DNA of 44,733 nucleotides, counting the filler, from Jimgerdemannia flammicorona (Eukaryota), in assembly GCA_003990765.1 (NCBI GenBank). It is 2 parts of 2 records of this genome, joined end to end, with 100 filler letters (N's around TTAATTAATTAA, not from the genome) between each part and the next. Parts side by side here need not be neighbours in the genome. Positions count along the whole stretch, not along the records: positions 22,418 to 44,733 come from RBNJ01001303.1; 1 more part is not named here. One strand, given 5' to 3'. Position 1 is the stretch's first letter. The number at the start of each line of letters is the position of its first letter. The notes below the pieces were generated by a model. The model saw only the letters and a list, made by a program, of their open reading frames with translations. It ran no database searches and was not told the DNA's origin. Below, in pieces: positions 4,516-44,733 of this stretch. The position numbers were made by a program, and so were the translations under genes.

Positions 4516-6559
4516 ATGTTCACTATGACAAGACAAGGCACGGGCGGTTTCAAAGATAAACTGATTGGCAAGCTGTCCAACTCCCCACTGAACAAGGGAA
4601 AGACGACCACCACCACCACCACCACTATTACCCGCCCAGGCCAGAGCCCAGTAACAACGACCACCATTACCAGCAACCACTCAGGACACTCAAGCCCAGC
4701 ACCCCAACACCAGCACCAGCAGCAACAACATCAGCAGCAACCTCAGCAGCAACCTCAGCAGCAACCTCAGCAACATCAGCAGCAACCCCAGCAGCAGCCA
4801 AAGCCGGCCGCTCAGCAGCCAAAGCCGACCGCTCAGCAACCCAAGCCAACCGCTCAGGCGGCCGTTCAGCAGCCAAAGCCGGCCGCTCAGGCCGCCGCTC
4901 AGCAGCCAAAGCCTGCTGCTCAGGCGCCAATCCCGAAGGCCACGAATATCGAGACCGCGGAGGAGGTGCTCGAGGATATCGAGGATGCCATGGATCGCTT
5001 GAGGTACGGTATCACAAAGAATGGCTCGTGGCCAGATCGGGTCCCTGGGATCGAGCATTCCCAATCGGAGAGGTGTCCCTGACTAACCTCCAATACGATC
5101 TACTCACCTGATCCGCCACAGTAAATCAGGTACCATGGTTGAGAAGGGCTACGACAAGCCACTCAACCTCGCCGCCTACAATTTCGACCACACCGACGCC
5201 CACGCCCGCAAGTGTCCCAAGAAGGACGAGGCATCTATTTCCACACTCGCCCACTACCTAACCCACAAGTACACCGACCCTGTACACAAGTACCGCGCCA
5301 TCTTCGCCTGGATCGCAGACAACATCGTCTACGACGTCGCCGGATACATTGACCGTAAGCACAAATCCCAGGAGGTTGCGGACGTCCTCCGTACTCGCAT
5401 CGCCGTATGCCAGGGCTACGCTAATGTCTTCCAGGCCCTCTGCGAGGAGGCGAATCTCAACTCTTCCATCATCCGCGGCTTCTCCAAGGGCGAAGGCTCC
5501 CAGCCAGGTGATGGTCAACCCGTTGAGCACGATAAGGAAGGGAAGCCCACAGGTCACGCGTGGAACGCGATCGTCGTAAACCACCAGTTCCTTTTCGTCG
5601 ATTCCACGTGGGGCGCCGGTACAATTGAACACTCCAAGCGCGCGTTCACGAAGCGGTTCCAGGACACCTACTTCCTCACCCCCCCCAATAAGCTCATCTT
5701 CTCCCACTACCCCGCCGAAGCGAAGCACCAGTATCTCTCCCCCCCCCTCTCCGAGCACGACTTCCTCGCCCTCCCCTGGGTCAAGCCCCTGTACCACGAG
5801 TACGAGGTCCAGATTATCAAGCCCCGCCCGCGCAGCCCTGTCATCACCGCCCAAGACGATATCATCGACATTTATCTCGATATCGCAAAGATGCCCAAGG
5901 GCGGATCCTTGATTGGACAGTTTGTCAAGTTCGGAAAGGATGGAAGGTCCACCGAGGAGGTCAAAGGCGCAGTCATCGCGCAGAAGGCCCCGGAGTACGT
6001 CCACAAAAACGTTTTCTGGGTGCACGTCGTCTGCCCGGCCAAGGGCGATTACAGGCTCGACCTCGTGGTTGTAAAGGGCCCTAACGTGAGTATTTCCTGC
6101 TCTCATCAATTTGACTTGGCAGCTGCAAGTTTTTTCATTCTTCGCTCCCAAACTAAACCCTTCTCCCTCTCCTTAATCTCACAGCAACCCGGCCTCAGCT
6201 TCCTCACCACCCGCATCGTCAACAAAGGCAACGGCACGCACCCGCAAGTCCCCAATAGCTTCATCACCCCGATACCCATCACCATCCATGCGCCCCTCAC
6301 CGGCATCCTCAAGGCCTCCCAGCCCACCGTCCGCTTCACCTTGTCCGCCTTCGCCAAGGACGACAAAGCCCCCTCCAAGTTCATCATCCTCAACAAGGAC
6401 CAGAGCGTGCGCCACGATATTTCCAAAACCGGGCATGGCCAGGAGTTCCTCCGCTTCGAGGCAGAGTTCCCCATGATGAAAAAGGGTGATTACACTCTCT
6501 ACTACCAGACGGGCGCCGGCGGCTCGATGCCCGGTGTGGCCTCGTTCAAGGTTGTGTAA
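4516..6559 (+). CDS. Transglutaminase-like cysteine protease (kyphoscoliosis peptidase/Cyk3/Hillarin family) with Thr/Gln-rich N-terminus
   Basis: Introns at about 5004-5121 and 6086-6184. Motifs YRAIFAWIADNIVYD, AVCQGYA (Cys), HAWNAI (His) and VDSTWGAG (Asp). Confidence 0.88.
4705..4925 (+). repeat. Coding low-complexity repeats (QQQP and QQPKPAAQ units)
   Basis: Tandem CAGCAACCT and CAGCAGCCAAAGCCGGCCGCT units in exon 1 of the transglutaminase-like gene. Confidence 0.85.
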
Positions 6560-20785: not shown

Positions 20786-21659
20786 TAATCCCATGTCGCG
20801 ATTACAAGAATTTCCGCATGGAGATGGTGCACGCTGGCTGTTCGATGGCCATGGCGTACGAAGCGATTGTGGGGGATAATTAAGATGGAGTGCGGATGGA
20901 GAATGTGATTGGGAGTGGATGTATACGGTAGGAATTAAAGACATCACGTGTGACGGACGATTGGTCGTCAAATGAGTATCCACAGAACCAACTTGGATTG
21001 TATAATCTATCAGACTCACATGTATTATTTTTCAATGAAAATTTTGAACATTTCCCATCATATCCTTCATATTCGTAATCGATATTTCTTGTTTATTGGA
21101 GATTATAAGAACCCAAGGATTTCGATACAGTAAATTCACGTTGATAATTGGTACAATTGAATTTCGATGTGTTATTTTAAATGGAGAAAATGATAATGCA
21201 TACGACTTTTTTTTTTTTTCGTATGTGAGATTTGAATAGAATGCAAATGAATGTTTGAACTCCACAAGAGAATGCAATTATGTAATGTTTACAGCCAATT
21301 GAAGTCTGACCCCTTGGTGACACCAGACCGCAATGAAGGTCCCGTGTTTCTTTTTTGGTGCAGTGGTGGCCTCGACCCTCTGCTTGCTAAGACTGACAAT
21401 GGAAGGGCCGACCTTGTTGGAGAGCTATAATGTCTGGTTTGTTTGAGACCCAGGCACATATCAATCCCGCACCTTAATATCCTTAGAGGCGATCTCAATT
21501 ATCCGCTACAGCACGTGCAGCAACGAATGGGGCATTTGCCCAACTCTGGCCGAGTCGAATAGAATTTTGTTCACCGAGATGGAGATGCCATCACTACTAT
21601 GACCGAAGTGGACAAGTGCATTTGCTGTCCAATCCACATTCTCTCTCCACGTTCGCTCA

Positions 21660-22710
21660 TTCAATACTCCCAGTTCATATAGTCTATATTTACTAGTCCG
21701 ATCTATCTAGTTCATATTTACTTTAATATTATACATATCTTACTATCAGTTTTATTTTATCAGAGTTTACTATTAATATAGCTACAATATACTACTATTT
21801 CAAAATATTCAAAAGTAAACTTAATATTATAAATCTGTATCTTCTCTACAGAATTACTTTGTTATTACAACACTATTTATTGAGATAATTTATTATTAGA
21901 CTATGACTTTATTATATATTTTAATATACTATAATTACAATTTTATAAATAAGAGTTATAATTAGAGCAATTTACTATACTAAATAAATTGAAAGTTATA
22001 ATAGCTAAAAAATTAAATATTTAGTTAGAATATATAAATAATAAAGTTATATCTTATTTATATATTACTTTACTAAGTCAAAATTTTGAAAATAATAAAA
22101 ACTTTAATAAGTTATAGTAAAAATAAATTAATAGTTAATATTTTAGTTACTTTATCAATAATATTAAAAAAAATGGATATATTTTATAAATATATATATT
22201 TTTTTTTTATTAAACTATAGATTAAGTATTATAAAACTATATTAAAAAAAAAAAAAATACTAAATTGTTTTTATAGAACTTCAAACCATTACCATACAGT
22301 GCAGTGACAGATATTATNNNNNNNNNNNNNNNNNNNNNNNNNNNNNNNNNNNNNNNNNNNNTTAATTAATTAANNNNNNNNNNNNNNNNNNNNNNNNNNN
22401 NNNNNNNNNNNNNNNNNAAAAAAAATTCTTTATAGAATGAAACATAGAATATTATATATGTGTAATTTTTTTTTTTTAAAAAAAATATATGTATAGATTA
22501 TATTATTATTATAGAAAAATAAAATCTTAAAGAATGTTTTAAAATGGTCAAATATAGGTGTGAAAATTCAAAATTCTGTATCATTACAAATATAAGAGAG
22601 AATAATAATAAAGAAATAAATTTAAGAAAGTTTACTCTTAGGTTTTGTGTATGTATATACATATATTAGTTATCTAAAAATAGAGTTTTTAAAAGCAAAA
22701 GTTGACTTTA
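21660..22710. other. Extremely AT-rich block, probably an eroded repeat
   Basis: Abrupt shift to near-AT-only, CpG-poor sequence with no ORFs on both sides of the gap. Confidence 0.55.
22318..22417. other. Assembly gap with artificial TTAATTAATTAA all-frame stop linker
   Basis: 100-nt block of N with TTAATTAATTAA centred at 22362-22373. Confidence 0.95.
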
Positions 22711-24022
22711 GGCGTGGGAAACTATATTAGGTTTATGGAATCTCCAATGTCCGTGCAGGATATCGCCATCGCCGATTACCTGCATTTCCCAGTTTGGCCA
22801 TTTTCTCTGCCACTCTTTTCCTCTGTCGACAAACTTCGCCCCTTCCCGAACTTACTGCTGTCCCGGATCGCACGCTATCAACAGAATAACAAAGTACGAG
22901 CGGCTCGGCGTTTGTTATTGTCGAGCCACCTGAGCAGCCGAGATCGTCAGTTTCACTTTTTGATGCTTACGAAACATCCGAGACTTGAGCCAGGCCCACA
23001 AAGTGCAGAGAGTGTTGCATGAACTCCCCTTGCAACCGGTTTGCTTGTATTGCCCATATCGCGGGTGCATCATTCATGGCTCTAAATGTACCGCGGCAAG
23101 ACAGGGAGCATGCAAGGTTCGAAATTTACTATAGCAAAGATGTGTTACTGCACCTTCGAACATTCGCTAATGTAAGCTGTGTCGATGGATTTGGTGAACA
23201 TGGAAGCATGCGTTTCCCAGGCGTAAGCGAAGGGTTCATCTTTTTATTGTTCCGGAAAGGGATTGCAGGAACTAAGTTGCTGGCGTAGTCTACACGCTTG
23301 ATTGTTGAGATGCGACGGGTACTCAGTCGCTAGGAGTGGAGATACTGCTGAAACGCTGCTGCTTAGAGCTGGCGTCTTTTGAAACAAACCAACGCAGGGG
23401 AGCTGATACTAAGCTAAGGTTGCATAAGAGATGGTGCGGAAGGGAATTGACACTAAAATTGCATAAGAGATTTGAACTATGTTCAATAACTCTAACTTCT
23501 TTCCCAGGGCAAACGACGTGTACTCCGAAGGATTGATATCATCAAACTCATGTCATACGTGTATGACTATTTGTTATTGTGTGACCTAACACCAACCACA
23601 TCCGACTTAACAGAATAGGAACAAACCTGTTTTACAATAAATATATGAGATGATAACAGTTTTGTTTATGGGTATTGGACTTGTGTGTCGCCAACTCAAA
23701 TACTATCGTTTGGCACGCGTATAAATGTAGACATCAACGCACAATCGTGGCAGCATCTCAAACAATTACACCAAACAAGAAGCCAAGTGCTAATCTTTAT
23801 TCTTGAACTCCAAGCGAAAAGATGCCTGCGAAAATGCTCATCTTCAGCAAGGTATCTGACCGCTCAACATGCGGCGTGGCGACGAGATCGGAGGACCAAA
23901 CACAGACAAATCAAAATGCGTATACGAAGCATTCCTAATCACCGCAATCCTTACGGCGTACTCAACAACTTCACAATGGTCATGTTCACCCAGATTGCAA
24001 GCGTCGTGGCCCAGGACACACC

Positions 24023-24973
24023 GTGCATTCAATATCGACCCAATCTCGGCGGTTTTCTCGGTGTTGGCCATCAATGCCAACCATTTTTATGATGTTATGT
24101 TCCAGTGCGCCGGAATTTATCTGCCTATTTCTCATTCAGAGTATGTATGCTTTCTTTCGACTTCGGCAAGCTGGACTGGCACAATATCAGGCGGTACTGA
24201 TCGTACGGGGACAATTGATCCTCGCACACAGCACGGAGTACGAAAAATTGGAAAATTTCCAATACAGGAAAGAGATAGAATCTCGCCACATTGTCGACGA
24301 CAAGACTCTTGGGAGGATCGAATGCAAACAATATAATGATGTAAGCTGGTCACTGCAAAAACTGGAGTTAGTTCCCGCCGAAAACCTCATCAAGGCTCAA
24401 TCAGCGAGCTCGACAATAGGTCCCGTATTCGCATTGGTTCAGGCAGGATGGTCCCTTCTCAATGGGGTCGAACGACTGGTGCACAAGCAGGCGCTTTCAG
24501 GATTGGACGCAATCGGTTTGCAGTATAGTATATTGAGTATACTTACTGCAGCAGAGACAATCTTCATTCCAAATATTGGGCACGATTTCGTTCGCATCAT
24601 CAACGAGACCAAGCAAGAATCGCTTGGCCAAAATGTCTCTACAGTTGGTTCAGAAATCAGTATGATACACATCATATTACCTTTTACAATTTACGTGCTC
24701 GGTGCCTGGCTCCAAACGCAAGTGGATTTCCCTTCATATGCCATCCGGCTCGCCGTAATGGTGCTGTACCCAATACGAATTATAGTCATAATACTTTTTT
24801 TCGTTGATTTACTTACAAATGAAAAACTGGAAACAAGCTTTACTATTACTATTATTTTATTATTTTTGAATATCTGTACAACAATCGCTTGGATTGTCAT
24901 GTGCTCGATCGGGATCTCCAGACCAAAGATTCTTATGAAAACTGACGCAGCCTTCAACTGGCCACATTTGTAA
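24023..24973 (+). CDS. Intronless multi-pass membrane protein of unknown family; 5' end uncertain, possibly frameshifted
   Basis: 316-codon ORF with several hydrophobic segments. It starts on GTG, the first in-frame ATG is near 24074, and overlapping upstream frames look protein-like. Confidence 0.55.
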   Translation: MHSISTQSRRFSRCWPSMPTIFMMLCSSAPEFICLFLIQSMYAFFRLRQAGLAQYQAVLIVRGQLILAHSTEYEKLENFQYRKEIESRHIVDDKTLGRIECKQYNDVSWSLQKLELVPAENLIKAQSASSTIGPVFALVQAGWSLLNGVERLVHKQALSGLDAIGLQYSILSILTAAETIFIPNIGHDFVRIINETKQESLGQNVSTVGSEISMIHIILPFTIYVLGAWLQTQVDFPSYAIRLAVMVLYPIRIIVIILFFVDLLTNEKLETSFTITIILLFLNICTTIAWIVMCSIGISRPKILMKTDAAFNWPHL

Positions 24974-28059: not shown

Positions 28060-31000
28060 ATGTCCACTCCCAACCGTCTCCAGGAACTACTAGCTCGACT
28101 CAAGCCCTTCCACGATCTGGACAGAGTTCATCAAACAGAAATTTTAGCATGGAAGAGTCGCTATTCTTTTAGTGAGCAAACACTCCGTGCCTGTCTCAAC
28201 ACGTTGGACGTGCCGCAGCTGGAGCCATACCTTGCCTGGATTGAGCCCGGTCTATTCACCGAATTTAAACAGCTTGCCGAAGGCGGATTTGCCAATGTTT
28301 ACCAAGGAAGCGTTCCTTCAGGTTATGGTTATATACCCCATGAGGTGGCTGCCAAAGAATTGAAGAAATCGATGGTTACCGAGGTGAGATATCATTGGGG
28401 TAATATACATATTATTTTCACACCACCTAGCTTATTAGTAACCTTGCCATGTACTCATCCCACCAAATCAGTTGGTGTTGAATATCTATTTGAGTCGCTG
28501 TGGAAATAATACCAATGACACCCCCACAATGGATACCATTGGGTTGTCAAGACATCCAGAAACTGGAGAGTATCTGATGATTATGCAATTTGCTGATATG
28601 GGAACTCTTGAGAAGCAGCCATGTGAACAAGATAGTGATTGGTACACTGCTTTGACATATGCTACAAAACTTGCCAGTCGTTTAGCTAGTCTTCACGACC
28701 TGGGCTTCAGCCACCAGGATCTCCATGCCGGAAACGTAGTATTCCACAAGTCCCGCACCACTCTCTTGATCGACGTTGGACTTAGTCGAAGTGTAGAAGA
28801 CGCACATTCTGAGGATGGTGTCTATGGCCGTATAGCATACTTCCCTCCAGAGATCTTCGAGAGAAAGCAGTATACACAGAAATCGGACATCTACTGCCTG
28901 GGAACGCTATTGTGGCAACTGATCGCCGGTGTTCCGCCACAAGGCGTCGCTTCGGTGGCCGTCTCCAGTAAACCGGATGGGCTTCGCGAGGAGCTTATTC
29001 CTGGTGCGCCAACGGCATTTAATAATATCATCAAGAGCTCCTGGCATCTCGACCCTGATCAGCGACCGAGCGCTTGTGAAATCTACAATCAGTTGATTGA
29101 ATGTGCAGCTGGTTTAGTTGGAATTTCTCCCGTCTCCCAGCTGAATACAGAAGACCAAATTCTTGGATTTCTGGCATTATCCCCGGTGCCATTTTCACCC
29201 GAGGTACAATCGTTCATCGCCGCGCGATCGGCCACCTATCGGAACGATACGAAATCCAGTAACAGTGACGTTTTCAATTTTGCCGGGTCCCCGGCAAGCG
29301 GGTGCCACGCCGGAAGCAAATTCTACACTCCTGTGCAGCTCAACCAAATCACGGAACAACACTCCCGAACGGGACTTGTCACACTCGGGCGGCAGCTGGA
29401 TCCAGGTATGTAGCGCGCAGGCGCACGGTTCAGACAGTTTGTGTTCTTGATTCATGTCTCGTCGTTAAGGCAATATTGGCAAGTGAGAGATCGCGATAAT
29501 AGCCATAGAGAAAATCACCAGTTAAAACTTGTTATCCTTCATCTCTGTCTAGGGGAAAACATTGGCACAGACGAGCCCCACGCCCTAGCCGAATCTCTGA
29601 AGCAGAACACAACAATGAGCAAGACGAAAGTTTCGAGTATGTCTGAACTGGGTGACCATTGCTTTCAGCTGTGCGATAAGGCCAAGCTAATGATCTATAC
29701 ATGTTTGCTACTCTCCTCATCTTTAGGAAGCTTGGTGGACGACAAGGGGACCGGCGTCCTAGCCGAGTTACTGAAGCAAAACGCAACACCGAATCAGCTG
29801 AACCTCTCTGGTATGTGTGAATTGTAGGAAACGTACACACTTTTTACGACTGTGAGATTTAATTAGACACAATCTCTGTGTGTTCGCTCATCCCTGTTTA
29901 TCTTTAGGGAAAGTCTTCGATCATAGGGAATCACGAATTCTTGTCCAGTTTCTGAGAGAGAACGAAAACCTGACCAAGCTCAATCTCAGCGGTATGTCAG
30001 CATTATATCAATTACTGTTTACAGTAGCATGATGGGATCCAGACCATGCTTTGAGTAATGCTCTTAATCTATGTTTATGTTTTTTAGGCAACAGCATCGG
30101 CTTATTGTTATGCCGTGCTCTAGCCGAATGGCTAAAGCTGAACACGACCTTGACCGAGCTGAATCTCAGTAGTATGTTGAAGCATTGTATGCGGCTGAGC
30201 GATAAAGTAGGCTAACTATATGTGCATATTCGATCATTTTATAGATAATGAGATTGGCGAGCATGGAGCACGCGCCCTAGCCGAGTCTCTGAAGCAGAAC
30301 ACGACCCTGACCGAGTTGAATCTCCAAAGTATGTCAGAACTGTGTAGAGTATTTTGTGAGGCTACGTGATGGAATCAAGTTAATGATATTTGGCTATTTG
30401 CATATCCCTGTCTATTTTAAAGATAATGTTATTTGTGACCGGGGGACAAGCGCCCTATCCGGGTCTCTGACGCAGAATACCGCCTTGACCAAGCTGAACC
30501 TCGAACGTATGTTGAACTGTGTGAAGCATTGTGTGCGGCTGCATGATGAAAGCAGGCTAATGATGTGTGCATGTTCGCTCATATCTTGTATTTTATAGTA
30601 AATGAGATTGGCGAATATGGGGCACGCGCTCTAGCCGAGTCTCTGAAACAGAAAACATCCTTGACAGAGCTAAATCTAGAACGTATGTCGGAAGCATTGT
30701 GTGTGGCTGCATGATGGAATCAAGCTAATGATCTTTGGGTGTTTGCTTGTCCCTTGCTCATTTTAAAGATAATGATATTGGCAAGCAGGGGGCATGCGCC
30801 CTAGCCGAGTCTCTTAAGCAGAACACGACCTTGACCAAACTGAATCTCGGACGTATGTGGGAACTTTTGAAGCATTATATATATGCGGCTGCATGATGAA
30901 AACCGGCTAACAATATGTGCATGTTCACTCATCCCCTGTTCATTATATAGATAATGAGATTTTTGGGCATGGGACACGCGCCCTATCCGAGTCTCTGAAG

Positions 31001-32556
31001 CAGAATATGAACTTGACTGAGCTGAATCTTAACGGTATGTCAGAATTGTGTGAAGCATTGTGTGCGACTGCGTGATGGAGTTAAGCTAAATATCTTTGCT
31101 TGTTCTCCTATCTCCTGCTCATTATAAAGATAATAATATTGGCGAGAGAGGGGCACGCGCCCTAGCCATTTCTCTGAAGAAGAACACAGCCTTGGCCAAG
31201 TTGAATATCTCCTGTATGTATGTCAGAAAGCATTGTGTCTGACTGCATGATGGAAGCAAGTTGACGATCTTTGCACGTTCACCCACCTTCTTTTCATTTT
31301 AAAGATAATAATATTGGTGAGAAAGGAGCACGCGCCCTAGCCGAGTCTCTGAAACAAAATACGACCTTGATCGAGCTGAATCTAAAAGGTATGTCGGAAC
31401 TCTGTGAAGAATTGTGTGCGGCTGCGTGATGGAATCATACAAATGCTCTCTGCATGTTCGCTCATCCGCTAGAGAATACGATTGGAAAGGCGGGGGCACG
31501 TGCCCTAGCGGAGTCCTTCAAACAGAACACGAGCTTGACCAAGCTGAATCTTGAACGTATGTCGGAACTGTGCGAAGCTTGTGTGCGGCTACATGATGAA
31601 ATCGGGCTAAAGATACGCATGTGCGTATCCTCTGACCCTATGTTCATTTTAAAGGGAATGGAATTGGTGAAGAGGGGGCACACGCTATAGCCGAGTCTCT
31701 GAAGCATAACACGACCTTGACCGAAGTGAATATCGAAGGTATGTCGGAACTGTGTGAAGCATTGTGTGCGGTTGCATGAAGAAATTAGGCTAACGATACG
31801 CATCAGCGTGTTCGCTGACACTATGTTGATTTTAAAGGGAATGGAATTGGTGAAGAGAGGTTACACGCCATAGTCGAGTCTCTGAAGCATAACACGACCT
31901 TGACTGAAGTAAATATTGAAGGTATGTCGGAACTGTGTGAAGCATTGTGTGTGGTTGCATGAAGAAATCAGGCCAATAATACGCACGTGTGCGTTCGCTG
32001 ACCCTATGTTCGTTTTAAAGAGAAGAGAATTGGTGCCGCGCCAGCCGCCACTCCGATTATGGGTGACCCTCTCCCCCACCATCGGCTACGGCAGTCGCCC
32101 ATCCGCAGGGTCCGCTTTGTGCTCGATAACTCCACCGCATACTTCCGTTACGACATCGTTCGTGAGGGCTACGAAGTCTTCTACGTCCTAGACCAAACGC
32201 CGCTCGAAGTCCTGCAATCCATCAGAGACAGTGATGTAGCGGTGCTTACCCTTGACCAGAGCTACGCTAATTTTTCCAGGACTTCCGACAGGAAACCCGT
32301 CCTCATCCTCCCGCCCATGTTCCTGCCAATCGACGAAAACCGCAAAAGAAAGCGAGAATGGTTGGCACAGCTGTTGAGAAGCCATGATCAGATCGTATTG
32401 CTCCGCATGTTCCCGATACGCACATTCACGGCTCATTCACTCAGGCATGGGTGGTGGAGGCTGGAAGAAGTAAGCGGGACGTTTATTCCGCCGCCGGTAA
32501 ATTCTACTAAATCAGTTCTAGCTAATAGGATGCTAGGGCGTTCTCGAAGACTATAG
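28060..32556 (+). CDS. TKL-type kinase + 14 RI-like (28-aa) LRRs + C-terminal PIN-like domain, ~989 aa, 17 exons
   Basis: Exons 28060-28383, 28472-29405, fourteen 84-nt exons from 29553 to 31921, and 32021-32556 splice into one stop-free 2970-nt frame. Kinase motifs AEGGFANVY, VAAK, HQDLHAGN, DVG, YFPPE, SDIYCLG. LRR consensus NxIGxxGARALAESLKQNTTLTxLNLxx. Confidence 0.9.
29553..32020 (+). repeat. Tandem exon+intron repeat array, 14 units of 157-183 bp
   Basis: Each unit is an 84-nt exon plus a 73-99-nt intron starting GTATGT. Most introns share GAAGCATTGTGTGCGGCTGCATGATG-like cores. Confidence 0.95.
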
Positions 32557-32769
32557 AGGCAAATGAGGCAAAGTACGAGGAATACGAACGATAGAATGTA
32601 GGATGTTAGGTGAAACACTTGATAGTTTACGTACTCTTTTATTCGAAACGGCGAACAGTCTCATCTGAAATTTCAGCAAAGCTGACATTGCCTTTTGGCC
32701 AATAAACGGAGTGATAAAACTGGATTCGTTTACCTCACTTCATGCCTTACTCAGACTTGCGAGTATAGC

Positions 32770-35700
32770 GTACATCTATAAGATTTATTAGATGTTTTTG
32801 ATAATTATTTCAGAAGAGTAGAGTGTGAAATCCTAAAAAAAAAATCAATTTGATATCTTAACTATCAACTATTATACAGTTGCTTTTAAGATAATTAGCA
32901 ACTTAGAATTTAATCTAGTTGATATCTTCTACTGTCAGATATATGATATTTCAGAGAGTAACTTCTTAAAGATACATATATAATGTAATCAGAATGAATA
33001 ACTTCAAAGAAGATATAAATAAAGATACAATTATATGATCTGGTAATAATTTCATAAATGAGTTATATATAATAAAAAGTTAAGTAAGATAAATAATATA
33101 AAAATACTATAGTAAGTTATTATTGAGATGACAACTCAATATATAGGTACATGACTTTATATGCCATCAGTATTATATCATTTATCATTAATATGTAAAA
33201 TATACAACTTATATATTTTGAATAAATTGCTTCTTTTATTCATTATAATAATTACTTAACTCATTATATAATACTATGACTGGTGTTTTGAAATAAATTT
33301 ATTCCAATATACTAACTGGTATTTTAGAACAAAACTTATCTTAACAAATATAAATTATCTGAAATAGTCAAGTATTAGTTAGTTAAATTATCATATATTA
33401 GTATCAATACAAATAAATACTCTAATAGTAAGTCAGTAATAAATCAGTCTTAATTTAGTATAGTTCTTTATATAGCTAAATAGTTTAGAGAAGATGCTAT
33501 ATCTAGATGCTCTGATCTCAATACCTTTTTATATATCACAAGTACTCTTTTATTATAACAGTGACCTCAGAATGATGATATCAGCATAGGAGACAGCCTT
33601 TCCTTACAAGCAACCAGATCATTTTGACAAAGTAACTTGGGGCTCAAGCTAATCTAAATAGTACTTCATCTTGCTTAAGATTAATAACACTATCTTCAGA
33701 ATACCCAAGTATCCCAAACTCAAGGAATAACTCAGAAAGTAAATCAGAACCAAAATCAGAACTAGAAGACAGTAATGATGAAATGGCCACCTCAATATCA
33801 ATCTTTGTAAAATATCTAGAAGATCTGAGAGAATTTCTTAATAGAATTGAAGAAATAGAAGATCTATAGAATCTCTCTATCTAGAGAAAAGTTATCATTT
33901 TTAAGGCCCAACTCAGAGAACCTATCAAGGAAATTTTTATGAATAGATGCACTTTGAGGACCTTAGTTTATATCAATTACCTCAAGATATACTTACTATC
34001 TATATATTAAACTAGAAGATTGACCAATACCTCCAGACCCTTACTCTCAGTAACTTCCAAGCCCTATCAGTTCTCTTGCCTCAGTTCTGAGAAACCAATA
34101 GAATCTGTCTTCAATAAATTCAAATATATGTATGAAGAAAACCTTATCTTGGCAAAACATCTACTGCAGATCTATCAACTATAGGCCTACTATATAATTA
34201 GTCAACTACTACAAAACCTTTTATCTTCAGAACAGACCAATATCTATAATACCACTGGTATGTTCTGAAGAAATACTATTATAGCTATAACTTCCAAAGA
34301 ATAACAATATCTATCTATCTAAACATTATCAATCATATTGAAGTTCTGTTCTCTGAGGAAGAAGAAGAGCTATTAAAATGAAAAAAATTCAGATACTAAA
34401 GAATATAATAGTACAGGTATTATACTTAAGATATCTATATATACTATAATAATGACTAAAGAACAGTCTGGAGACAGATTACTCTTTAATAGAGACTGAT
34501 GTAATAAGAGAATAATATAGTATATTCAGATGATATAAATACTCAGCATAGTATAGTTATCTATTTCTAGTTACCTATATACTCTTACTTATAATTAGTA
34601 AGATACTAAATAATATTTATTGATTTATATTCTAAGGATATACCTGTATCTATTAGATACATCTGTATCCATTAGACAAATCTATACTTATTAGATATAT
34701 CTGTATCTAGTAGATATACCTGATCACTCTCTATTCTCAAAATAGTATTACTGTATATTCTATAGTTAGCTATATAGTAACCAGATAGTAATTATAACTA
34801 TATAGAATATCTCAGAGATAAGAGTGAATAATCCTCAGTCTGAAATTGAAATAAAAAGGCAAAAGATAAGCCTGCTTACTATACTTTAAGAAATATATCT
34901 TTGAAGAGCCATATGATCCAGAAAGAATTATAATACTTAGGAGAAATACCAACTATAAAGCAACTTTAGAATATTGTGAGCTAGAGGTTCTTTTTACTCT
35001 AGTCCACTTTCTAATACAAAGAATTTGTCTTACATAACCAGTCTAGTATAAGATATACTTTTATATTAAATATCCATTTATATAAATAAAGTAGTTTTCA
35101 ATATAACTATATTAGAAACCTACTGCTTAAGAAAGCTAAGTTATTATTTAAAACAAGCTACTAATTTAGAAGAATCTGCACTATTTAAGTTAATCTACCA
35201 ATTCAGAAAGTTTTACATTCTCTAAATAGTCTGCCAAATTGTCAGCTCACTACTAATAAAGAATACTATCTAGAATCATATAGAAATTATATTCTTTTTT
35301 TGAATAAGATTATTGTACAGAAATTACATACTTTTGAAAATAGGATCATTATATAGAAATTATATAAGAAAATTACTCATACCATATAAAGATCATCTGC
35401 TATCATTTATTTCAAAAGAATCATCCATATCAAAGAACTATCTCAATTAGAAAATCATACAAATTATCCACAATAAGAATAGGAGAGCTTGTTCAGATAT
35501 TTGAATTTTTCTATTATATAGCTAAATATCAGAATATTAGGAAATATAGAACATTTTATTACTTTTTAATAAAGTAACTAGAGGCTTAAGCTAATTTACA
35601 TAGTAGTCTCAAACTTGTAATTTGCCTTTATTAAGCTGATATATTACAATACTCAGTACAGAGACTATTTAAATAAATTAGATAATTATTACTAAATATA

Positions 35701-36780
35701 AAGTACTAGATATATTTATATATATCTAGTTATACAAAATATGATATATATCTAGTTATACAAAATATGATATATAACTACTAAGTTGAAATTTCTGTTA
35801 TAAATTCTATTACAAATTCTATTAGTATTATAGATAGTATTTAATAATAATGTCAGTTACTTATTACTATATAATGAACTATTATATCTTTTTTCTTTTT
35901 ATTTAAATATATTTACTTAAATCTAAACCAAACTTCTGATATTTATTAAATTGAAGTATAGTATACTAAGTAACTTAAAAGTTTATATTGTACTAATTTT
36001 TATTAGTTAAGTTAGTAATATTTTCAAAGAATACTCCTCAGAGATAATTAATGACTTGTAGTTAGTATAATGTAGCAGATACATAACTATGTAAATATGG
36101 CAAATTCTGAAATTCATATAAAGAGAAAAAGAGTATATAAAGAAGATACTGGAGATATTTATACAAGTGTGCTAGCTATAGGGTGATTAAGTTATATATG
36201 AGTTACTTTTTACAAGTATTGAATCTTTTCAATATCTACTAGGATTTCACTGATTGCAAAATATTTTAATATCTGTATAATCTTTAGCAATTGTTAAAGT
36301 TTCTGTACTTTGTAAAATATAACTGCTATTTATAAGACTAAGCTATATTTCAGAATTGGATTCAGGTACCTTGATCAAATTTCTATGCTTCTGATTTATA
36401 TTTCTAATTTATACCATATGTCACATCTTCCCTCTAAATAGGTTATTTTTAATATAAAAATATCTATTCAAATTTCTATATTATAATATTTATATATTTA
36501 TTCCCCTTACATAGACATATTTGTGATATATCTAAGCAATTGTCAAAATGTTTTTTGAGAACCCAAAAAGTCTTCAAATAATTAATTTAGATAATAGTAT
36601 ATATATTATCAAAAGGGATTAATTCTTATAATGTTGTCCCTCAAACTAAGGAGTGATCTGACTATTAACTCAATTATACAATCCTTTGAAGAGTATCTAT
36701 TATTCAATATTGATAGTTTACAGAAATGAGAGTAACAACCAGAACAACCAATTAACAGCAGATGATGCAGACAAAATAAT
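32770..36780. mobile_element. Heavily eroded AT-rich transposon relics, including a probable Ty3/gypsy gag-like remnant
   Basis: CpG-poor and stop-riddled. From 33783 (+) it reads MATSISIFVKYLEDLREFLNRIE, compatible with a C-to-T/G-to-A-eroded gag P..F.G..ED..EFL motif. A weak integrase-like trace (IITKYKVLDIFI) lies near 35690. Confidence 0.4.
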
Positions 36781-36781
36781 G

Positions 36782-36783
<2 letters not shown>

Positions 36784-36841
<58 letters not shown>

Positions 36842-39607
36842 GTCACTTGGACTTTCCTTTATTACCTCAATCTATAATAATAATACAATATCACCTGCAT
36901 TCCCTCAACCGATATCCTTCAGATCTCCCTCTCTACCCTCTATCCCCTCCTGTCAAAGGATAACTTGGTCACTCACTACTTGAATCCTCTCTCTACTTTT
37001 CTGGCAAATACAATTCACCAAACTTCAGTGGCTCCCCCCACCTGGTCCCCACCCTCTCTACCAGCCATTCCCAATATACCACCCTAGTCCCAATTCCAAC
37101 CTGCTGGCTCTCCTTAAATATATATAACCAATGCCTGGCCAGCCCAACCCAAATTGCTAGAGCTCAACCCAGGGTCAACTATTCATCTCCAACCCCTCCC
37201 ACTAGCCTTTAGCGGAGCTCTCCCCATCTCCTCCTGTCCCCTCTCACCAGGGCCTACAATCCTAACCAGTCTGCAATATGGTGCCAAAACTCCCCTAAAA
37301 TGTCACACTTGCCAAGCCAATGTTTAGATATTTGTAGCACTCCCCCTTCCTGTCCAACATCCAAACATTCCTCACACTCAAATGTGCCATCTGCCACCAA
37401 GTGTCCAGACTGATAGTTCAACATCATATTCCTCCTTAGAAACTGCCACCACACTACTCAGAACTTGGGGGGAAGCCACCACATCATATGCTTGCTCTAA
37501 GGCCAAAAACCATTCCAGTCCCACTCCTTGCCAATCCCTACCCTCTGCCATGCCTCAGGCCACAGGTCCCCCCCTAAGCTCGACATATACTCCATTCCAT
37601 TACCAAGCTGGAAATCCTCCACCAAAGTACCATCCAGCAAAAGCCTGTCCCATCTCCACATCTGCAGTCTCCAATCTTTCTCTCCCTCAGCCCCCTACCA
37701 CCAAAGTCCAATTCTCCTAACACCATCCACCACCCCCCACCAAAAGCCCCTATACTGCATCCTCTTGCTCCCCTCCAGGGCCACCAATGCAAACAGATCG
37801 CCAGATGCTCTACAGGGGGAATACTGGACCTCCCATACCCTCTGCATGAGTGGAACCCACTCCTGGCCCCTTAACTAGCTTGTCATCATCAGCCACCATG
37901 CTTGCAAGCAATGAAGGCATTTGGTAAAGTCCACCAAGCCTAGCCTGCCTTTGTCCACAGATAGGGTCAGAACCTCCCATCCTATCTGACTTCACTGCCC
38001 AGCCCAGATCCATGATCTTGTCATCTTCAAAAGTCACCTGACCACCCATGCTGAGAAGTCCAGATGATAACCCACATACCACAGCTTCAGCAACCAATAT
38101 ACATTCAGCACCATCACCCTTTCTGCCAAGGATATATACTGATCACCCCACCATAAGTATATATCACACCATACTAGGAGTTGCTGTTCCCACCAAGCAC
38201 AGGGCAGGAGAGACCCATATATCAAAAATTAGATCCCCAGGTAGTGAACTGGCTCTCCTGCTGGCACCACTATTCCAATCATGTCACCACTAACTATTCT
38301 GCCATCTAGCACCAGAGTCTTGTACTTGTGCCAATTGAGTCTAGCACCAGAGCCCCTCTCATACCATTTCACAGTCCTCCTCAATTTCTCCACATCTGCC
38401 AGCATACCCAGTCTGACCACCATATCATCTGCAAAGGCCCCCACTTTCCAATTAATCTTCAGAATGTCCAAACTCCCAATTTGATACTGGATCCTGTCCA
38501 ATAGGGGCTTTAAGTAGAGGATATATAAGATGGGTGACAAAGGGTCACCTTGTGGCACCCCCTGACTAAGTGGAAAAGTTACACTCTTATGTCCATTGAT
38601 TATCAATACTGCCTGACTGTTTTCCAAAAGACTGATTAGTGACCTCCTGAACTCTAGAGAAACACCACCTATTTCAGCACCCTCTCCAGCCAGATCCTCC
38701 TTACTCTGTCATATGTCTTCTCCTGATCCAGAAATACTAATCTGCCATTAACCCTGGCCACCTGAGCCCCTTCAATCATACCATGGACCCAGGCTGTCTC
38801 ATCTTGGATCAACCAACCACCAACAAATCCTCTCTGCTCTACTCCCAGTACTTGCTAAGCAATCCCCTATAGTCTGGTCACTAAGACCTTTGTCACCAGC
38901 TTGCAGTTTATGTCAAGGAGTATGATCAGTTCCAGTTCTTCCAATCTTCCCTTCTCCCCTTATCCTTATAGATCAAGGAGACCAGCCCTAGACACTGGAC
39001 CCCAATCCAGGTCTCAGACTGAAGAATCTCATCATATATGGCCATCAACTCCTCCAATACTACCTCCACCCCAGCTATCTTTTTCCAAAATCCTAGAGAA
39101 GTCCATCCTCTCCCAGAGCTGTCCCCTTACTTGTTGAAACCAGAACCTCACAAATTTCCAACCCCCTCACTGGGTCTCCCAGAGTCTCCAGACCCATTGC
39201 TGGGTCTAGATGCCAATCCTCCAACTGCCTTTCAATGTCTGAGGCATCCTCACCCCCTTCTTCCTCACTCCATAGGTGCCCCCAGTAGGACCTTAACAAT
39301 CCCAGAATGGCTGGAGTCCCTACCACTATCTCCCCATCCTCATTTAAGAGACCATCCCACTGCTGTTTAGTTCTCCATGCCTGTAGCATCTGAAATAAGA
39401 TATGGGTCTTTCTCCCTCCTCCAACCCTTGGCACCTCAGCCTTACTACCATCCCCTTTAAGTTAATCTCCTCCTCCAATTATATCACTTCCTTAAGCTTC
39501 TCGACTTCCTTTTGAATCTACATAATATGCTAGTCTGCCACCTTCCAATCCTCAAGCACTCCTGCTCATCTCTCCAGAAGTACTGCCAGTCACTATGAAG
39601 CCCAAAG
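36784..39607 (-). mobile_element. Degenerate non-LTR retrotransposon (L1/Tx1-like ORF2), 5'-interrupted, with poly(A) tail
   Basis: Minus-strand RT motifs GEDGL, DQEKTYD, GVPQGDPLSPILY and AFADD, a Cys/Trp-rich C-terminal region (CEEC), multiple stops, and a 55-nt T run at 36784-36838 forming the poly(A) tail. Confidence 0.88.
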
Positions 39608-40711
39608 TATAGTACACCATACTTATACTCAACCTTTTTGCTACTCCTTTTTAATGTATTTAATAAAAAAATATAAAAAATCATAAATTGATATAAAATC
39701 CTGTCAAGTTTAATCAAATAGAGAGCTTTTTTTATTATTATATATAATATTTTAATAAAAATAGTTTTTTTTACTATTCCATAGTGGATACCATAACTGG
39801 TCACAATTTCGGCCTTAAATTAAGCACTTTCACAAAGTCAAATTAATCAAAAAGGCAACTCATGAGGCCAGTCACAATTTCAGCAGGTCTAAAAGTCACT
39901 TTTACAAAGCCAAATCTCAAATATTTGAAATTATATTAGCTGAATATTTTATTTACTGAGTTCTCCTTTGTTGAGATCCTCTTTATTGAATTCTCTCTTC
40001 AACTAATCTCATTCTTACTGAGTTTCTCTTTATTAATATGAAATAAGCTAATTATATAATATTTTTTAAAGTGAAAAATTATAATATTATATTATTGCAC
40101 AGCACTTATATTCAACTTTTTGCTACTCCTTTTTAACAGATTTAATAAAAAAATAATAAAAATCATAAATTGATAAAATATTCTATTAAGTTTAATCAAA
40201 TAGAGAGCTTTTTTTATTTTTATATATAATATTTTAATAAAAATGATTTTTTTACTATTTTATAACTTAAAATATCATAATTTATAAATCTCTTCTCCTC
40301 TGTATTGGCTATATTAAAAAAATATATTATTAAAAATATACATAATAAATATTATCTACTTTAATCAAATAGTGAGTTTTTTTTTATTTTTATTTTAGTT
40401 ATAATAATATATAAATTTAAATAATATAGTTATATAGAACTGAAATTGTGACCTGCCTTTCACTTATCTCTCTAGTCACAATATTGGCCTTAAAATTGTG
40501 ACCAGCCTTTCACAGGCATGGATTTGGCTTTAAAAATTATGACTGAGGGGAATGAATGTGACATCTACATTTTATTTCTAACTCAGCTGTAAGATCGTTC
40601 ATTTGACAATACTGTCAACAATCTTTCTCAACATCTTACAAAACCAAGGTATGTAATATATATATATATATTCAGTAATAAATATAGAGGAGATACCATC
40701 CAAACACCCTG

Positions 40712-41029
40712 ACTCGTCTCAATTGTCCATTTCATCTCAATCGTCCATCTCATCTCAATTGTCTGTCTCATTTCAATCATCCATCTCATCTCAATCGTCC
40801 ATCTCATCTCAATCGTCCGTCTCATCTCAATTGTCCATCTTGTCTCAATCATCCATCTCATCTCAATCGTCCGTCTCGTCTCAATCATCCATCTTGTCTC
40901 AATCATCCATCTTGTCTCAATCGTCTGTCTCATCTCAATTGTCCATCTCATCTCAATTGTCTGTCCTGTCCTGTCCCATTATCTCAATCGTCCATCCAGT
41001 CCCATCTCATTTCAATTGTCCGTCCAGCC

Positions 41030-41065
<36 letters not shown>

Positions 41066-41250
41066 GCAATAAATATAGAGGAGATACCATCCACACCCCG
41101 TCTTGTCTCAATCATCTATCTCGCCTCAATCGTCCATCTTGTCTCAATCATCCATCTCGTTTCAATCGTCCATCCCGTCTCAATTGTCCATCTCATCTCA
41201 ATCATCTGTCTTGTCTCAATCATTCATTCTATCATCTCAATCGTCCATCC
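40712..41250 (+). repeat. 18-bp minisatellite CTCATCTCAATCGTCCAT in the left arm, two blocks split by a (TA)n module
   Basis: Tandem copies are directly visible and produce the spurious 6-aa-repeat ORFs in the track. Confidence 0.92.
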
Positions 41251-41335
41251 AGTCAAGACCTCTACCACATTCACCCAAATCACCTTTCTATAAATTTTAC
41301 TAAATTATTAAATATATATTTTTAGTTATAACAAA

Positions 41336-43471
41336 ATGCCAAGACTAGCTAAACAAAGCCAGCACTTATAAGTTTTAAGATATCATAAACTTGAGGAAGA
41401 AATTATAGGTATGTAAATATTATTATATAAATATTAATAATATTAATAATATATTAATTATAATTCTAATTCTAATTATAATATAGATGATAATAATAAG
41501 AGAGTAGAAGATGATGAAGATGAAGAAGAAGATGAAGATGATGATGATGAGAGAGAAGAAGATGATGATGAGAGAGAAGATGATGAGGAAGAAGAAGAAG
41601 ATGATGATGATATAGATAAAGATGAGAATACAGATGAAGATGAAGATAGTGATGATGATGAAGATGATAAAGATGATGATGAAGATGATGATGATGACAA
41701 AGATAAAAAAACTGATAGTAGCTGGGAACCTCACATCACTGCACTTAAAGTTCATATGAAGAGTTTGGAGAATCTATCTTTAAATTATATTCTAAAATAT
41801 CATCATATATCACAATATATGGTATTTAGAAATAATAATAGAAGTACTTCTCAAGCTAGTCAACTGATTGCAGAAAGTATCAACAAAGGCTTATACTATG
41901 CAAAGCTTTTGAGAAGATAGATACAAAATTGGATTGACAACAAAACTCTTCCTATTTCTCAGCAAGGAAGACATGCTAAGAAGAAAAGTCTTCTTAAAGA
42001 TAAAAACATTAAACTTGCAGTTCAAACTTATTTAGAAAAGAACAAGTTTACTGCTACTCCAAAATCTCTTAAAAAACATTTAGAAAAAGAGATTTTGTCA
42101 ACATCAGCAGAATTTATAAAAATTCATGAAGATACAGCAAGAAGATGGATGCTAAAGATGGGCTATACTTATAGTAGGCGCAGAAAAGGACTTTATGTTG
42201 ATGGTCATGAAAGAGATGATGTTAAAGTATCCCGTGAATAATTTTTAAAGCAGATGGCTGACTGGAAACCATTTATGATTCAATATGATGAAGATTTTCA
42301 ACCATTATAATATAATATTTCTCTTGGACAACAACATATTCTGGTGACACATGATGAGGCTAATTTCAATGCTAATGATGATCTAAACTATGGATGGGGA
42401 CCAAAAGGACAATTTCCTTTAAGACAAAAAAAGTAGAGGTGCTAGTATAATGGTCAGTGACTTTCTACTGGATACTGTTGGAAGGCTGGCTATATCTGAG
42501 GAACAATATAAAGATATTAAGAGTCCAAAGCCTTCAAGAGAAGCTTATTGTCTACTTGAAATTGAAAAAGCTAAAAAAGATTATTGGACTGGAAATGATC
42601 TAATAGATCAGGTATGTATATTTATAATAATAATTAAATTTATTAAACAGATAAAATAAAAATACTTATAATATAAATTAATATTATATTATTAGATTAA
42701 AACCAAAGCTATTCTAATTTTCAATACTATTCATCCCAACTATATGGCAGTATTTGCATTTGATCATAGTCAAGGATATTCAATGTATGTATCAGATGCT
42801 TTATTTGCTCACAAGATGAACCTTGGACCTGGTGGAAAACAGCCACTTATGAGAACTACAAAGTTTAACAATATCACTCAAGAAATGGTATTTTTATCAA
42901 AATATGAAATTGTTAAACTGCATGGTAAAGCAAAGGGCCTGAAATAAGTACTTGAAGAAAGAAATCTTTGGAGAGAAAATTTAAGAAGAAAATGCAAGGA
43001 AAAATGCAAGAAAGAAGATTGTTGTGCTGTACAAATTCTATCTCTTCAAGAAGATTTTAAAGCACAGAAGCCACTTATTCAAGAAGTTATTAAAAAAATA
43101 GGTCATAAATATATTTTTTATCCTAAGTTCCACTGTGAACTCAATTATATTGAATATTTTTGGAGCAGTGTAAAAAGGTATTGCAGGTATGTAATATATA
43201 TTATTAAATTATAATTATAATTTAATAATAATGTTAATTATTATATTTATTAATTATAATATTTAGAACTCATTGCAATTATACATGGACTGGACTGAAG
43301 CAGAATATTCCAAAAGCTTTGGCCTCTGTTGATCTTATTACAATTAGAAAATATGCATATCATTCACAAAAATATATGAATGCATATCAAAAAGGACTTG
43401 TATTGGCTGATGCAGAAAATGATGTTAAAAAATATCATTTATATCGCCATGTCTCTCAAAATGTTATTTAG
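41336..43471 (+). pseudogene. Intron-containing DDE transposase, inactivated by stops
   Basis: Motifs LYVDGHERDDV, VTHDEANFNAND, VFAFDHS, MNLGPGGKQP and FYPKFHCELNYIE. Three AT-rich GTATGT..AG introns start near 41409, 42612 and 43187. Acidic D/E tract at 41487-41700. In-frame stops at e.g. 41369, 41918, 42239 and 42945. Confidence 0.85.
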
Positions 43472-43611
43472 CCAAGGCATGAGTTAGCTGCCTGATATAT
43501 TATATAAATAACTCTATCAAATATATTTAGTTTTTTACCAAGTTTCTCTTCAGGCCTGATAAATTTTAAAGTCATAGAGGTAGCCAATTTGGCTTTAGTT
43601 TAAGGTCAATC

Positions 43612-44045
43612 AGAACGGATGATTGGGACAGGATGGATGATTGAGATCCCAATTGTCCATCCATCTCATCTCAATCATCCATCCCATCCCAATCGTCTGT
43701 CCCTCTTGTCTCAATCATCTGTTCTGTCCCAATCGTCCGTCCGTCTCATCTCAATCGTCTGTCCCATCTCATGAGACGGATGATTGAGAGATGGATGATT
43801 GAGAGGAGATGAACAATTGAGAGGAGATGGACGATTGAGAGGAGATGGACGATTGAGAGGAGATGGATGATTGAGAGGAGATGGACAATTGAGAGGAGAT
43901 GGACGATTGAGAGGAGACGGACGATTGAGAGGAGATGGACGATTGAGAGGAGACAGACAATTGAGAGGAGATGGATGATTGAGAGGAGATGGATGATTGA
44001 GAGGAGATGGACGATTGAGAGGAGATGGATGATTGAGATGAGACA
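43612..44045 (-). repeat. 18-bp minisatellite in the right arm, mostly inverted (GAGAGGAGATGGACGATT)
   Basis: Reverse complement of the left-arm unit, with a forward-oriented block at about 43648-43770. Confidence 0.92.
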
Positions 44046-44733
44046 AGACTGGATGGACTTTGAGATGAGACATGGCAAGGATGGTATCTCCTCTACATTT
44101 ATTGCTGAATATATATATATATATATCTTGGTTTTGGGAAATGTTGAGAAAGGTTGTTAACAGTATTGACAGATGAATGATATCATATTTGCAACTTGAA
44201 ATCCAACCTGACCAGATGAAATAGATACAACCTAAGAGAATAAATCTGTTTATGAATATATGTCCAATTTGGATATACTTCAGCTTGTTGGATCCACCTT
44301 TGGTATGGAAATCTAGCACAATAAAGATAAATAAATTTGGAAATATATTTATAAAGTTATTCATATTTATGTGAAATATTTAATTTGGCTTTGTAAAATA
44401 AGGCCAAAATCGTGACGGGCCATTCACTGAGCTGAATTTATTCCCAAATCTATGCATGTCACAATTTCGGGTAACATTTCTATATTATAATACTAATAAC
44501 TATATTATTTAAATTTATATATTATTATAACTAAAATAAAAATAAAAAAAAACTCTCTATTTAATTAAAGTAGATAATATTTACTATATATATTTTTAAT
44601 AATATATTTTTTTAATATAGCCAATACAGAGGATAAGAGATTTATAAATTATGATATTTTAAGTTATAAAATAGTAAAAAAATCATTTTTATTAAAATAT
44701 TATATATAAAAATAAAAAAAGCTCTCTATTTGA

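Follow-up and report, generated by a model that had tools for sequence, protein, structure and literature searches.

A kinase and leucine-rich repeat gene of Jimgerdemannia flammicorona with a terminal exon that probably encodes a divergent DUF5615-like PIN-like domain

Gene organisation at the locus

The DNA analysed here, referred to as the window, is a stretch of 44,733 nucleotides (nt) from the fungus Jimgerdemannia flammicorona (GenBank assembly GCA_003990765.1), made of two parts joined end to end by 100 filler letters, the second of which (positions 22,418 to 44,733) comes from record RBNJ01001303.1. On its + strand, at 28060-32556, lies one gene of 17 exons with a coding sequence of 2970 nt and a product of 989 amino acids (aa), as modelled by requiring open frames across GTATG...AG introns. 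The gene is laid out as a TKL-like kinase, then 14 exons that each encode a single leucine-rich repeat (LRR), then a terminal exon at 32021-32556. This terminal exon is the subject of the present study. The reading that we favour, with a probability of about 0.6, is that it encodes a lineage-restricted, highly divergent PIN-like domain of the Mut7-C group, nearest to DUF5615, which is joined in-frame to the kinase-LRR gene as its output or regulatory end.

Exon 1 (28060..28383, + strand) provides the ATG, an N-terminal region of about 60 aa which is collinear with that of the Endogone homologue P0007, and the start of the kinase, with a Gly-loop-like EGGFAN and the VAAK Lys. Exon 2 (28472..29405, + strand) encodes the TKL-like protein kinase domain, detected by the Pfam models PK_Tyr_Ser-Thr (E 7.4e-24) and Pkinase (E 6.2e-20), and a linker. 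In the kinase encoded at 28472-29405, HQDLHAGN replaces HRDLxxxN and D-V-G replaces D-F-G; the lysine of VAAK is retained, as are the catalytic residues Asp and Asn.

The LRR array (29553..31921, + strand) is formed by 14 exons of 84 nt, starting at 29553, 29727, 29908, 30088, 30245, 30423, 30599, 30769, 30951, 31130, 31305, 31473, 31655 and 31838. Each of them encodes one 28-residue LRR of the ribonuclease-inhibitor or NOD-like receptor (NLR) type, with the consensus N-x-I-G-x-x-G-A-x-A-L-A-E-S-L-K-Q-N-T-T-L-T-E-L-N-L. The introns of the array are phase-1, of the form GTATG..AG, 73-99 nt long and copies of one another, and an in-frame stop is present in every one of them when read through. 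The Pfam model LRR_6 (PF13516) was detected on all four exons scanned singly, with E-values of 0.0046-0.19 and scores of 12.3-17.4 bits, which are under the 23.4-bit cut-off because each 27-aa exon piece was scanned alone. Using Tandem Repeats Finder, a 183-nt array was detected at 31494-32035 (84% matches), together with a two-unit 354-nt period at 30234-31797. Given this exon-per-repeat layout, with 84-nt exons and homologous phase-1 introns, whole repeats could be gained or lost in frame by unequal crossing-over.

From one small public run (X1), which is guessed to be RNA, 114 contigs align to the window, nearly all of them on a 42-nt stretch within the last LRR exon (31863-31906) that forms its conserved core. 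Their summed depth on this core is above 100,000, and their loose ends continue into another LRR start without an intron. These contigs suggest that, in a related organism, LRR genes of this kind form a very large family that is expressed.

The last intron (31922..32020, + strand) is a copy of the array intron, whose donor, tract and acceptor it shares, and has a mean column identity of 89% with the two preceding introns. The repeat homology extends 15 nt into the terminal exon via ...AATTGGTG and ends at 32035, which delimits an LRR-exon stub, (E)KRIG (32021..32035, + strand); 12 of its 15 bases are those of the starts of exons 15 and 16. Position 32035 is also the end of the 183-nt array given by Tandem Repeats Finder and the point at which homology with a contig from a relative, described below, begins. 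After the stub the terminal exon consists of unrelated, intron-free sequence, open to a TAG at 32554-32556. An earlier reading made from the sequence alone (hereafter the sequence-only reading) had held that the exon starts as a 15th LRR behind a homologous intron and then switches to unrelated intronless sequence containing a particular peptide. Both statements are borne out, the former by the 14 full exons and the stub, the conserved intron and the shared bases, the latter by the break of homology and the open frame. The quoted peptide lies in the stop-to-stop frame 32002-32556 (+), and the exon product has 177 residues.

Three parts can be distinguished in the exon downstream of the stub. 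A Pro/Arg-rich linker (32036..32103, + strand) corresponds in the alignment to the N-terminal extensions of the homologues, which are variable, and is modelled with predicted local distance difference test (pLDDT) values of 52-57. The first in-frame ATG (32059-32061) is inside this linker and is a possible start of a stand-alone product of 165 aa. The predicted DUF5615-like PIN-like core of 125 aa (32104..32478, + strand) was delimited from the homologues, the profiles and an AlphaFold2 (AF2) model; its residues discussed below are Asp35 (32125-32127), Ser37-Thr38 (32131-32136), Thr76 (32248-32250) and Asp78 (32254-32256). An unconserved C-terminal tail closed by the TAG stop (32479..32556, + strand) has pLDDT values of 47-53. 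Beyond it lies a probable 3' untranslated region (UTR; 32557..32748, + strand), with an AATAAA at 32701-32706, of which positions 32580-32748 are conserved in the relative's contig.

Homologues of the terminal-exon domain

Homologues of the domain were searched with phmmer among 1.84 billion representative proteins. Six were retrieved, with E-values of 1.4e-22 to 1.5e-10 and identities of 33-40% to the window domain in the alignment. They are singletons from run assemblies, called on short contigs, and all are 146-228 aa long; no domain-bearing protein of more than 228 aa was found among these representatives. In relatives of this organism, apparently an early-diverging fungus of Endogonales type, the domain is borne by these small proteins. 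The homologue P0006 has an N-terminal lead similar in length to that of the window's 165-aa open reading frame. For both P0002 and P0006 the longest contig has 8829 bases, and the two may be neighbouring paralogues on one contig.

In the alignment of the seven sequences, about 125 residues make up the core; 17 of its columns are invariant, and all 17 residues are present in the window copy. The motifs of the family include F-x-x-D-x-S-T, E-G-Y, L-L-T-x-D-x-x-Y (with the Asp in six of the seven sequences), I-L-x-L-P and, close to the end, a Trp. A six-frame translation of the window contained no further copy of the domain. A word-index search returned no longer relatives of the domain; as this index found only 2 of the 6 known homologues with an alignment at near lengths, it is insensitive here. 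A metagenome locus (L203) was discarded as a chance word match, being antisense to a bacterial penicillin-binding-protein gene and interrupted by an internal stop.

Profile comparison with DUF5615

The Pfam model DUF5615 (PF18480) was detected on three of the seven family members, in a consistent register, with E-values of 4.4e-4, 0.02 and 0.021 (20.5, 15.2 and 15.1 bits, respectively). A reference set of true DUF5615 sequences was built from the genes of five cyanobacterial genomes: 32 matches were found, 24 had near-full coverage, and 21 were kept after 3 with internal stops were dropped. The comparison of the family alignment with these 21 sequences using hhalign resulted in a probability of 95.3% (P 2.4e-8) over 69 columns, and a second comparison using untrimmed alignments in 94.2% (P 1.2e-7) over 72 columns. 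Controls were treated in the same way. Response_reg (PF00072; 24 receivers) gave 33.5% (P 4.4e-4) over 32 columns located outside the beta1 and beta3 motifs, canonical PIN (PF01850; 24 sequences) gave 6.9%, and Mut7-C (PF01927), for which the alignment comprised only 2 sequences, gave 4.4%. The accepted pair DUF5615/Mut7-C gave 88.2%. Neither Mut7-C nor Response_reg was returned by Pfam scans of the window domain and of the family, and a hidden Markov model of the 21 DUF5615 sequences had no match on the window at default filters. In the profile-profile alignment the Asp of FVLD pairs with the Asp of the DUF5615 'llDE', and LTLD pairs with 'T.D', which reproduces the PIN-like alignment originally made by eye.

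A reciprocal search was performed with the family profile over 201 cyanobacterial, 251 Chloroflexota-phylum and 251 Pseudomonadota-phylum genomes, the E-values being calculated per genome. Six of the eight bacterial matches examined were true DUF5615 proteins (Pfam E 1e-16 to 4e-24), namely the four best matches (E 3.3e-4 to 0.0024), the sixth-ranked one (E 0.0048) and one cyanobacterial match (E 0.029). The two remaining ones, a dehydrogenase (E 0.019) and a ribosomal protein L17 (E 0.05), were chance matches, and the fifth-ranked match (L215, E 0.0039, with an internal stop) was outside the eight assessed. No match was found in five genomes of other phyla. In the ESM Atlas, clusters of DUF5615, PIN_10 and Mut7-C were found at 0.80-0.83, under the 0.9 level, and were considered as a lead only. 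The domain encoded by the terminal exon is very probably homologous to DUF5615.

Structure models

The AF2 model built on the 7-sequence alignment has pLDDT values of 83-94 over residues 30-150. Its elements are ordered b1-a1-b2-a2-b3-a3-b4-a4-b5-b6, the same order as in a model of a true DUF5615 protein (pLDDT 92.7). In the fungal model an insertion breaks the long helix 4 into two, and a beta-hairpin follows. The search of BFVD, a library of predicted viral structures, with Foldseek yielded a single match at E <= 1e-3, the phage 'DUF5615 domain-containing protein' A0A8S5NIT0, aligned with the fungal model over 134 of 141 columns with an E-value of 7.4e-4 and a probability of 1.00. A0A8S5NIT0 was also the top match in BFVD for the true DUF5615 model (E 8.6e-6). 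The sequence-only reading had placed the domain in the Mut7-C group, DUF5615-type, and had named the lack of any profile or structure match as the outcome that would speak against this; since matches of both kinds were found, the placement stands.

Active-site residues

Active-site columns were taken from the alignment of the 21 DUF5615 sequences; the alignments of Matelska et al. may define the COG4634 columns better. The Asp after strand 1, present in 20 of 21 DUF5615 sequences, is found in all seven members of the fungal family (Asp35 in the window), and the same holds for the Thr after strand 3, present in 18 of 21. The residue after the first Asp is acidic in 16 of 21 DUF5615 sequences and in one of the seven fungal ones. 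At the Asp before helix 2 ('D.evL', 19 of 21), no fungal sequence is acidic, and the window has a Pro. The Thr is followed by D-x-D in the majority of DUF5615 sequences; in the fungal family the first Asp is kept in six of the seven, among them the window copy, and the second position is acidic in two, with a Ser in the window. The prediction that the first Asp and the TxD Asp are kept and that other acidic positions are substituted was thus confirmed in the aligned columns, and the description of the domain as 'catalytically weakened' would be consistent with this residue pattern. Family-specific invariant hydroxyl and aromatic residues occur beside the two kept Asp, which suggests that a ligand pocket may be conserved, as opposed to decay.

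Conservation in a relative and junction with the array

A contig of 1374 letters from the run X1, coming from a relative, is about 93% identical to the window at 32035-32498 and 32580-32748. Over 154 codons compared, 26 differ, with 12 synonymous and 14 non-synonymous differences (for about 110 and 352 sites, respectively), corresponding to a dN/dS of about 0.4. The replacements are mostly conservative (I/V, R/K, Y/F), and the sole indel, of +6 bases, is in frame. The domain is under purifying selection. In place of the 81 bases at 32499-32579 the contig carries 286 other letters, so that conservation is lost in the C-terminal tail downstream of the domain and resumes in the 3' UTR.

Between the end of the last LRR exon (31921) and the ATG at 32059 there are 137 nt, which hold an intact repeat-type intron with a donor and an acceptor like those of its 13 siblings. 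Splicing in phase 1 would keep the domain in frame, no stop is encountered from 32021 to 32059 or onward to the domain, and no AATAAA occurs before 32701. Because the splice signals are intact and the phase is compatible, splicing would give an in-frame protein of 989 aa comprising the kinase, the 14 LRRs and the PIN-like domain. Judged from these signals, the fused transcript is probably made. No X1 contig bridges 31921|32021, part of 31982-32017 being uncovered.

The closest full-length homologue, Endogone sp. BC937DRAFT_86469 (P0007, 769 aa), has the same N-terminus, a TKL-like kinase 62% identical to that of the window gene, and LRRs of the ribonuclease-inhibitor type, with precomputed LRR_6 and LRR_1 matches. 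Unlike the window gene, it ends in an LRR without the PIN-like domain (BLASTP E 8.2). These data would fit a scenario in which a stand-alone gene was recently attached behind the last repeat, because position 32035 is both the end of the repeat homology and the start of the homology with the relative, and because the domain is absent from P0007. The sequence-only reading had proposed that the domain was captured into the array. The position of the junction at a repeat end, the Endogone homologue and the small size of the other homologues make this plausible.

Alternative explanations

The results that weigh against the reading favoured here concern either the identity of the domain or its joining to the array. 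As regards identity, the window domain has no Pfam match even at E <= 10, nothing relevant was found for it in NCBIfam or PHROGs, and searches of PDB sequences, with the single sequence and with the profile, returned nothing relevant. No family member reaches the DUF5615 gathering cut-off of 23.8 bits (best 20.5), so that none is a DUF5615 protein as defined by Pfam. Given the number of genomes searched, the bacterial matches of the family profile are marginal (best per-genome E 3.3e-4). Two strongly conserved acidic columns of DUF5615, the 19/21 Asp and the second Asp of D-x-D, are absent, which argues against canonical catalysis. Among solved structures, no PIN chain was present in the top 50 of Foldseek PDB or of VIA-align; the fungal model reached a best E-value of 0.039 with Foldseek and a best Z of 6.9 with VIA, where the leading entries were CheY-like receivers. 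A receiver-like (CheY-type) or other flavodoxin-like domain, with a convergent likeness to DUF5615, would agree with top solved-structure matches that are receivers at Z ~6 and with the 33.5% obtained by hhalign for Response_reg over 32 columns. Receivers, too, carry acidic residues where beta1 and beta3 end. The true DUF5615 model, used as a control, resulted in the same kind of list, with a best Z of 7.8, receivers on top, no PIN chain in the top 50 and 15 of 50 entries in common with the fungal list; the missing PIN match in solved structures is uninformative because this control behaves alike. Both models moreover share their BFVD match. The P value is 2.4e-8 for DUF5615 versus 4.4e-4 for Response_reg, only the DUF5615 alignment spans both motif regions, and the reciprocal search finds DUF5615 and not receivers, though the latter number hundreds per genome. 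We consider a receiver-like domain very improbable. The receiver-dominated PDB result also agrees with passages of Matelska et al. 2017 (PMC5499597) that describe the Mut7-C group (Mut7-C, COG4634, PIN_10 and PIN_16) as having a shortened PIN fold, then without a solved structure. A different origin for the domain, by recent horizontal transfer of a DUF5615 toxin gene from bacteria, would suit the mostly prokaryotic distribution of DUF5615 and its Mut7-C-group relatives. We take COG4634 to be the same family as DUF5615. The counts for COG4634 in the part of PMC5499597 that deals with it are 1536 in Bacteria, 117 in Archaea and 4 in Eukaryota. However, phmmer detected no prokaryotic protein at E <= 0.001 among the 1.84 billion representatives, and over the sampled genomes the profile did no better than the marginal E-value given above. 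The GC content at third codon positions (GC3) of the exon, 0.61-0.67, is inside the coding range of the window, 0.45-0.77, and the family is old in its lineage, because its members are only 33-40% identical to the window copy. With no close prokaryotic relative in these searches, a GC3 in the host range and a family already diverse, a recent transfer is very improbable. The prokaryotic origin put forward in the sequence-only reading is not supported, and an ancient prokaryotic transfer is neither supported nor excluded.

As regards the joining, all known homologues are small proteins, and the in-frame ATG at 32059 would permit a stand-alone protein of 165 aa like P0006. The 147 letters of the relative's contig upstream of 32035 have no counterpart at >= 90% identity in the window's last LRR exon or intron, no joint to an LRR exon is reported in this contig, and none of the runs listed is on record as RNA. 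Two genes could be present under these circumstances, a stand-alone PIN-like gene starting at the ATG 32059 and abutting the array, and a kinase-LRR gene whose transcript ends without the domain. The six homologues of 146-228 aa each have their own Met, P0006 has a lead of similar length, and the Endogone homologue ends in an LRR, all of which would be expected from such an arrangement. It is countered by the spacing of only 137 nt between array and ATG with its intact repeat-type intron, by the in-frame phase-1 splice and by the first AATAAA being at 32701; besides, the small homologues could themselves be terminal exons, because they were called on short contigs. We regard two separate genes as unlikely. 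The loss of canonical acidic residues and the unconserved C-terminal tail could also point to a decaying, functionless relic, but the 177 codons are open, dN/dS is about 0.4, the indel is in frame and the 17 invariant residues are all present, which leaves little room for a relic. The in-frame joining of a divergent Mut7-C-group PIN-like domain to the kinase-LRR gene is thus the reading retained in the discussion.

Other features of the window

About 3 kb upstream of the kinase-LRR gene, at 23939-24973, an open frame of 344 aa has hydrophobic stretches and no Pfam match. A 490-aa open frame at 5087-6559 comprises a core resembling transglutaminases (E 1.6e-12) and, as a weak match, an Ig-like domain of the KY type, and upstream of it, at 4456-5082, lies a low-complexity frame rich in Gln, Pro and His. 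Genes of about 50% GC are flanked by blocks of 21-35% GC (21000-23000, 33000-37000 and 40000-44733). A reverse-transcriptase fragment (38229-38708, - strand, RVT_1 E 1.3e-13) goes with the low-GC blocks. Long degenerate short-period repeats, open in several frames, belong to these blocks as well; they occupy 40.6-41.3 kb and recur in reverse orientation at 43.7-44.4 kb.

Discussion

DUF5615 comprises small prokaryotic and phage PIN-like proteins, which in bacteria are putative toxin-antitoxin nucleases, and is the best profile-profile partner of the fungal domain. The Asp of beta1, the 'evL..A' helix and T-x-D of DUF5615 align in the fungal domain. The fungal family differs by its own invariant D-x-S-T, E-G-Y, Tyr after T-x-D and Trp, by its split helix 4, and by being eukaryotic and placed behind a kinase and LRRs. 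The true DUF5615 proteins found in this study also match the PIN_10 and Mut7-C models. Toxins of the PIN_10/VapC45-type and COG4634 belong to the same structural group, with a shortened PIN fold, in the sections of Matelska et al. 2017 (PMC5499597) devoted to them, where PIN_10 and COG4634 are, unlike the fungal domain, stand-alone prokaryotic toxins encoded beside DUF433-type antitoxin genes. The comparison with Mut7-C (PF01927) is of interest for the position of the domain, since this is likewise a eukaryotic Mut7-C-group domain, C-terminal on a larger protein (from extracts of Busetto et al. 2024, PMC11347159). The same extracts assign to the MUT7-C domain of MUT-7/EXD3 a part in RNA binding, and not in catalysis. 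Mut7-C is described in the relevant passages of both sources (PMC5499597, PMC11347159) with a four-Cys zinc ribbon placed close to its C-terminus. The 125-aa core of the window domain contains no Cys and cannot carry this ribbon, so that the domain is not Mut7-C proper. The term 'DUF5615' was not found in the literature searched, and in the literature on kinases and LRRs in Endogone, Jimgerdemannia, Mucoromycota and Rhizophagus nothing was found on this architecture.

In the mechanism that we propose, a stand-alone PIN-like gene would have been joined to the end of the LRR array, and splicing would yield an intracellular protein of 989 aa made of the kinase, 14 LRRs and the PIN-like domain. 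The DUF5615-like domain would then serve an intracellular LRR-kinase sensor as its output or regulatory end. A pocket at the ends of beta1 and beta3, lined by D-x-S-T and T-x-D-x-x-Y, may bind metal or phosphate. RNA or a nucleotide might be bound through Asp35, Ser37, Thr38, Thr76, Asp78 and Tyr81, with a nuclease activity at most weak or altered, by analogy with the RNA-binding role of MUT7-C. The chances of a binding-type function are slightly short of even, and it is rather doubtful that the domain is a real nuclease. A decoy role is conceivable but speculative.

RNase L and Ire1 combine a sensor or repeat part, a kinase fold and an RNase (the KEN domain) in one polypeptide. By analogy, the window gene would also unite in one chain a kinase fold with a sensing part and a putative output directed at RNA; it differs by a nuclease fold unrelated to the KEN domain and by the order of its domains. 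Fungal NOD-like receptors are reported without LRRs in the part of Dyrka et al. 2014 (PMC4986451) that describes them. In a more speculative form, to which we grant a low probability, a recent exon capture in an early-diverging fungus would have built a new intracellular sensor without a NOD module, in which a TKL kinase and NLR-style LRRs are combined with the DUF5615 fold of prokaryotic toxin-antitoxin nucleases, either as an RNase L-like effector of conflict or immunity or as an integrated decoy guarding the small stand-alone PIN-like proteins.

This gene bears on the roles that large families of kinases and LRR proteins play in early-diverging plant-associated fungi. If our reading is true, the kinase-LRR-PIN-like gene would be a testable candidate for signalling with an RNA- or nucleotide-directed output, and would also provide a dated example of the gain of a domain at the edge of an exon-per-repeat array. 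The DUF5615 lineage would also reach into eukaryotes, as a variant that escapes recognition by Pfam.

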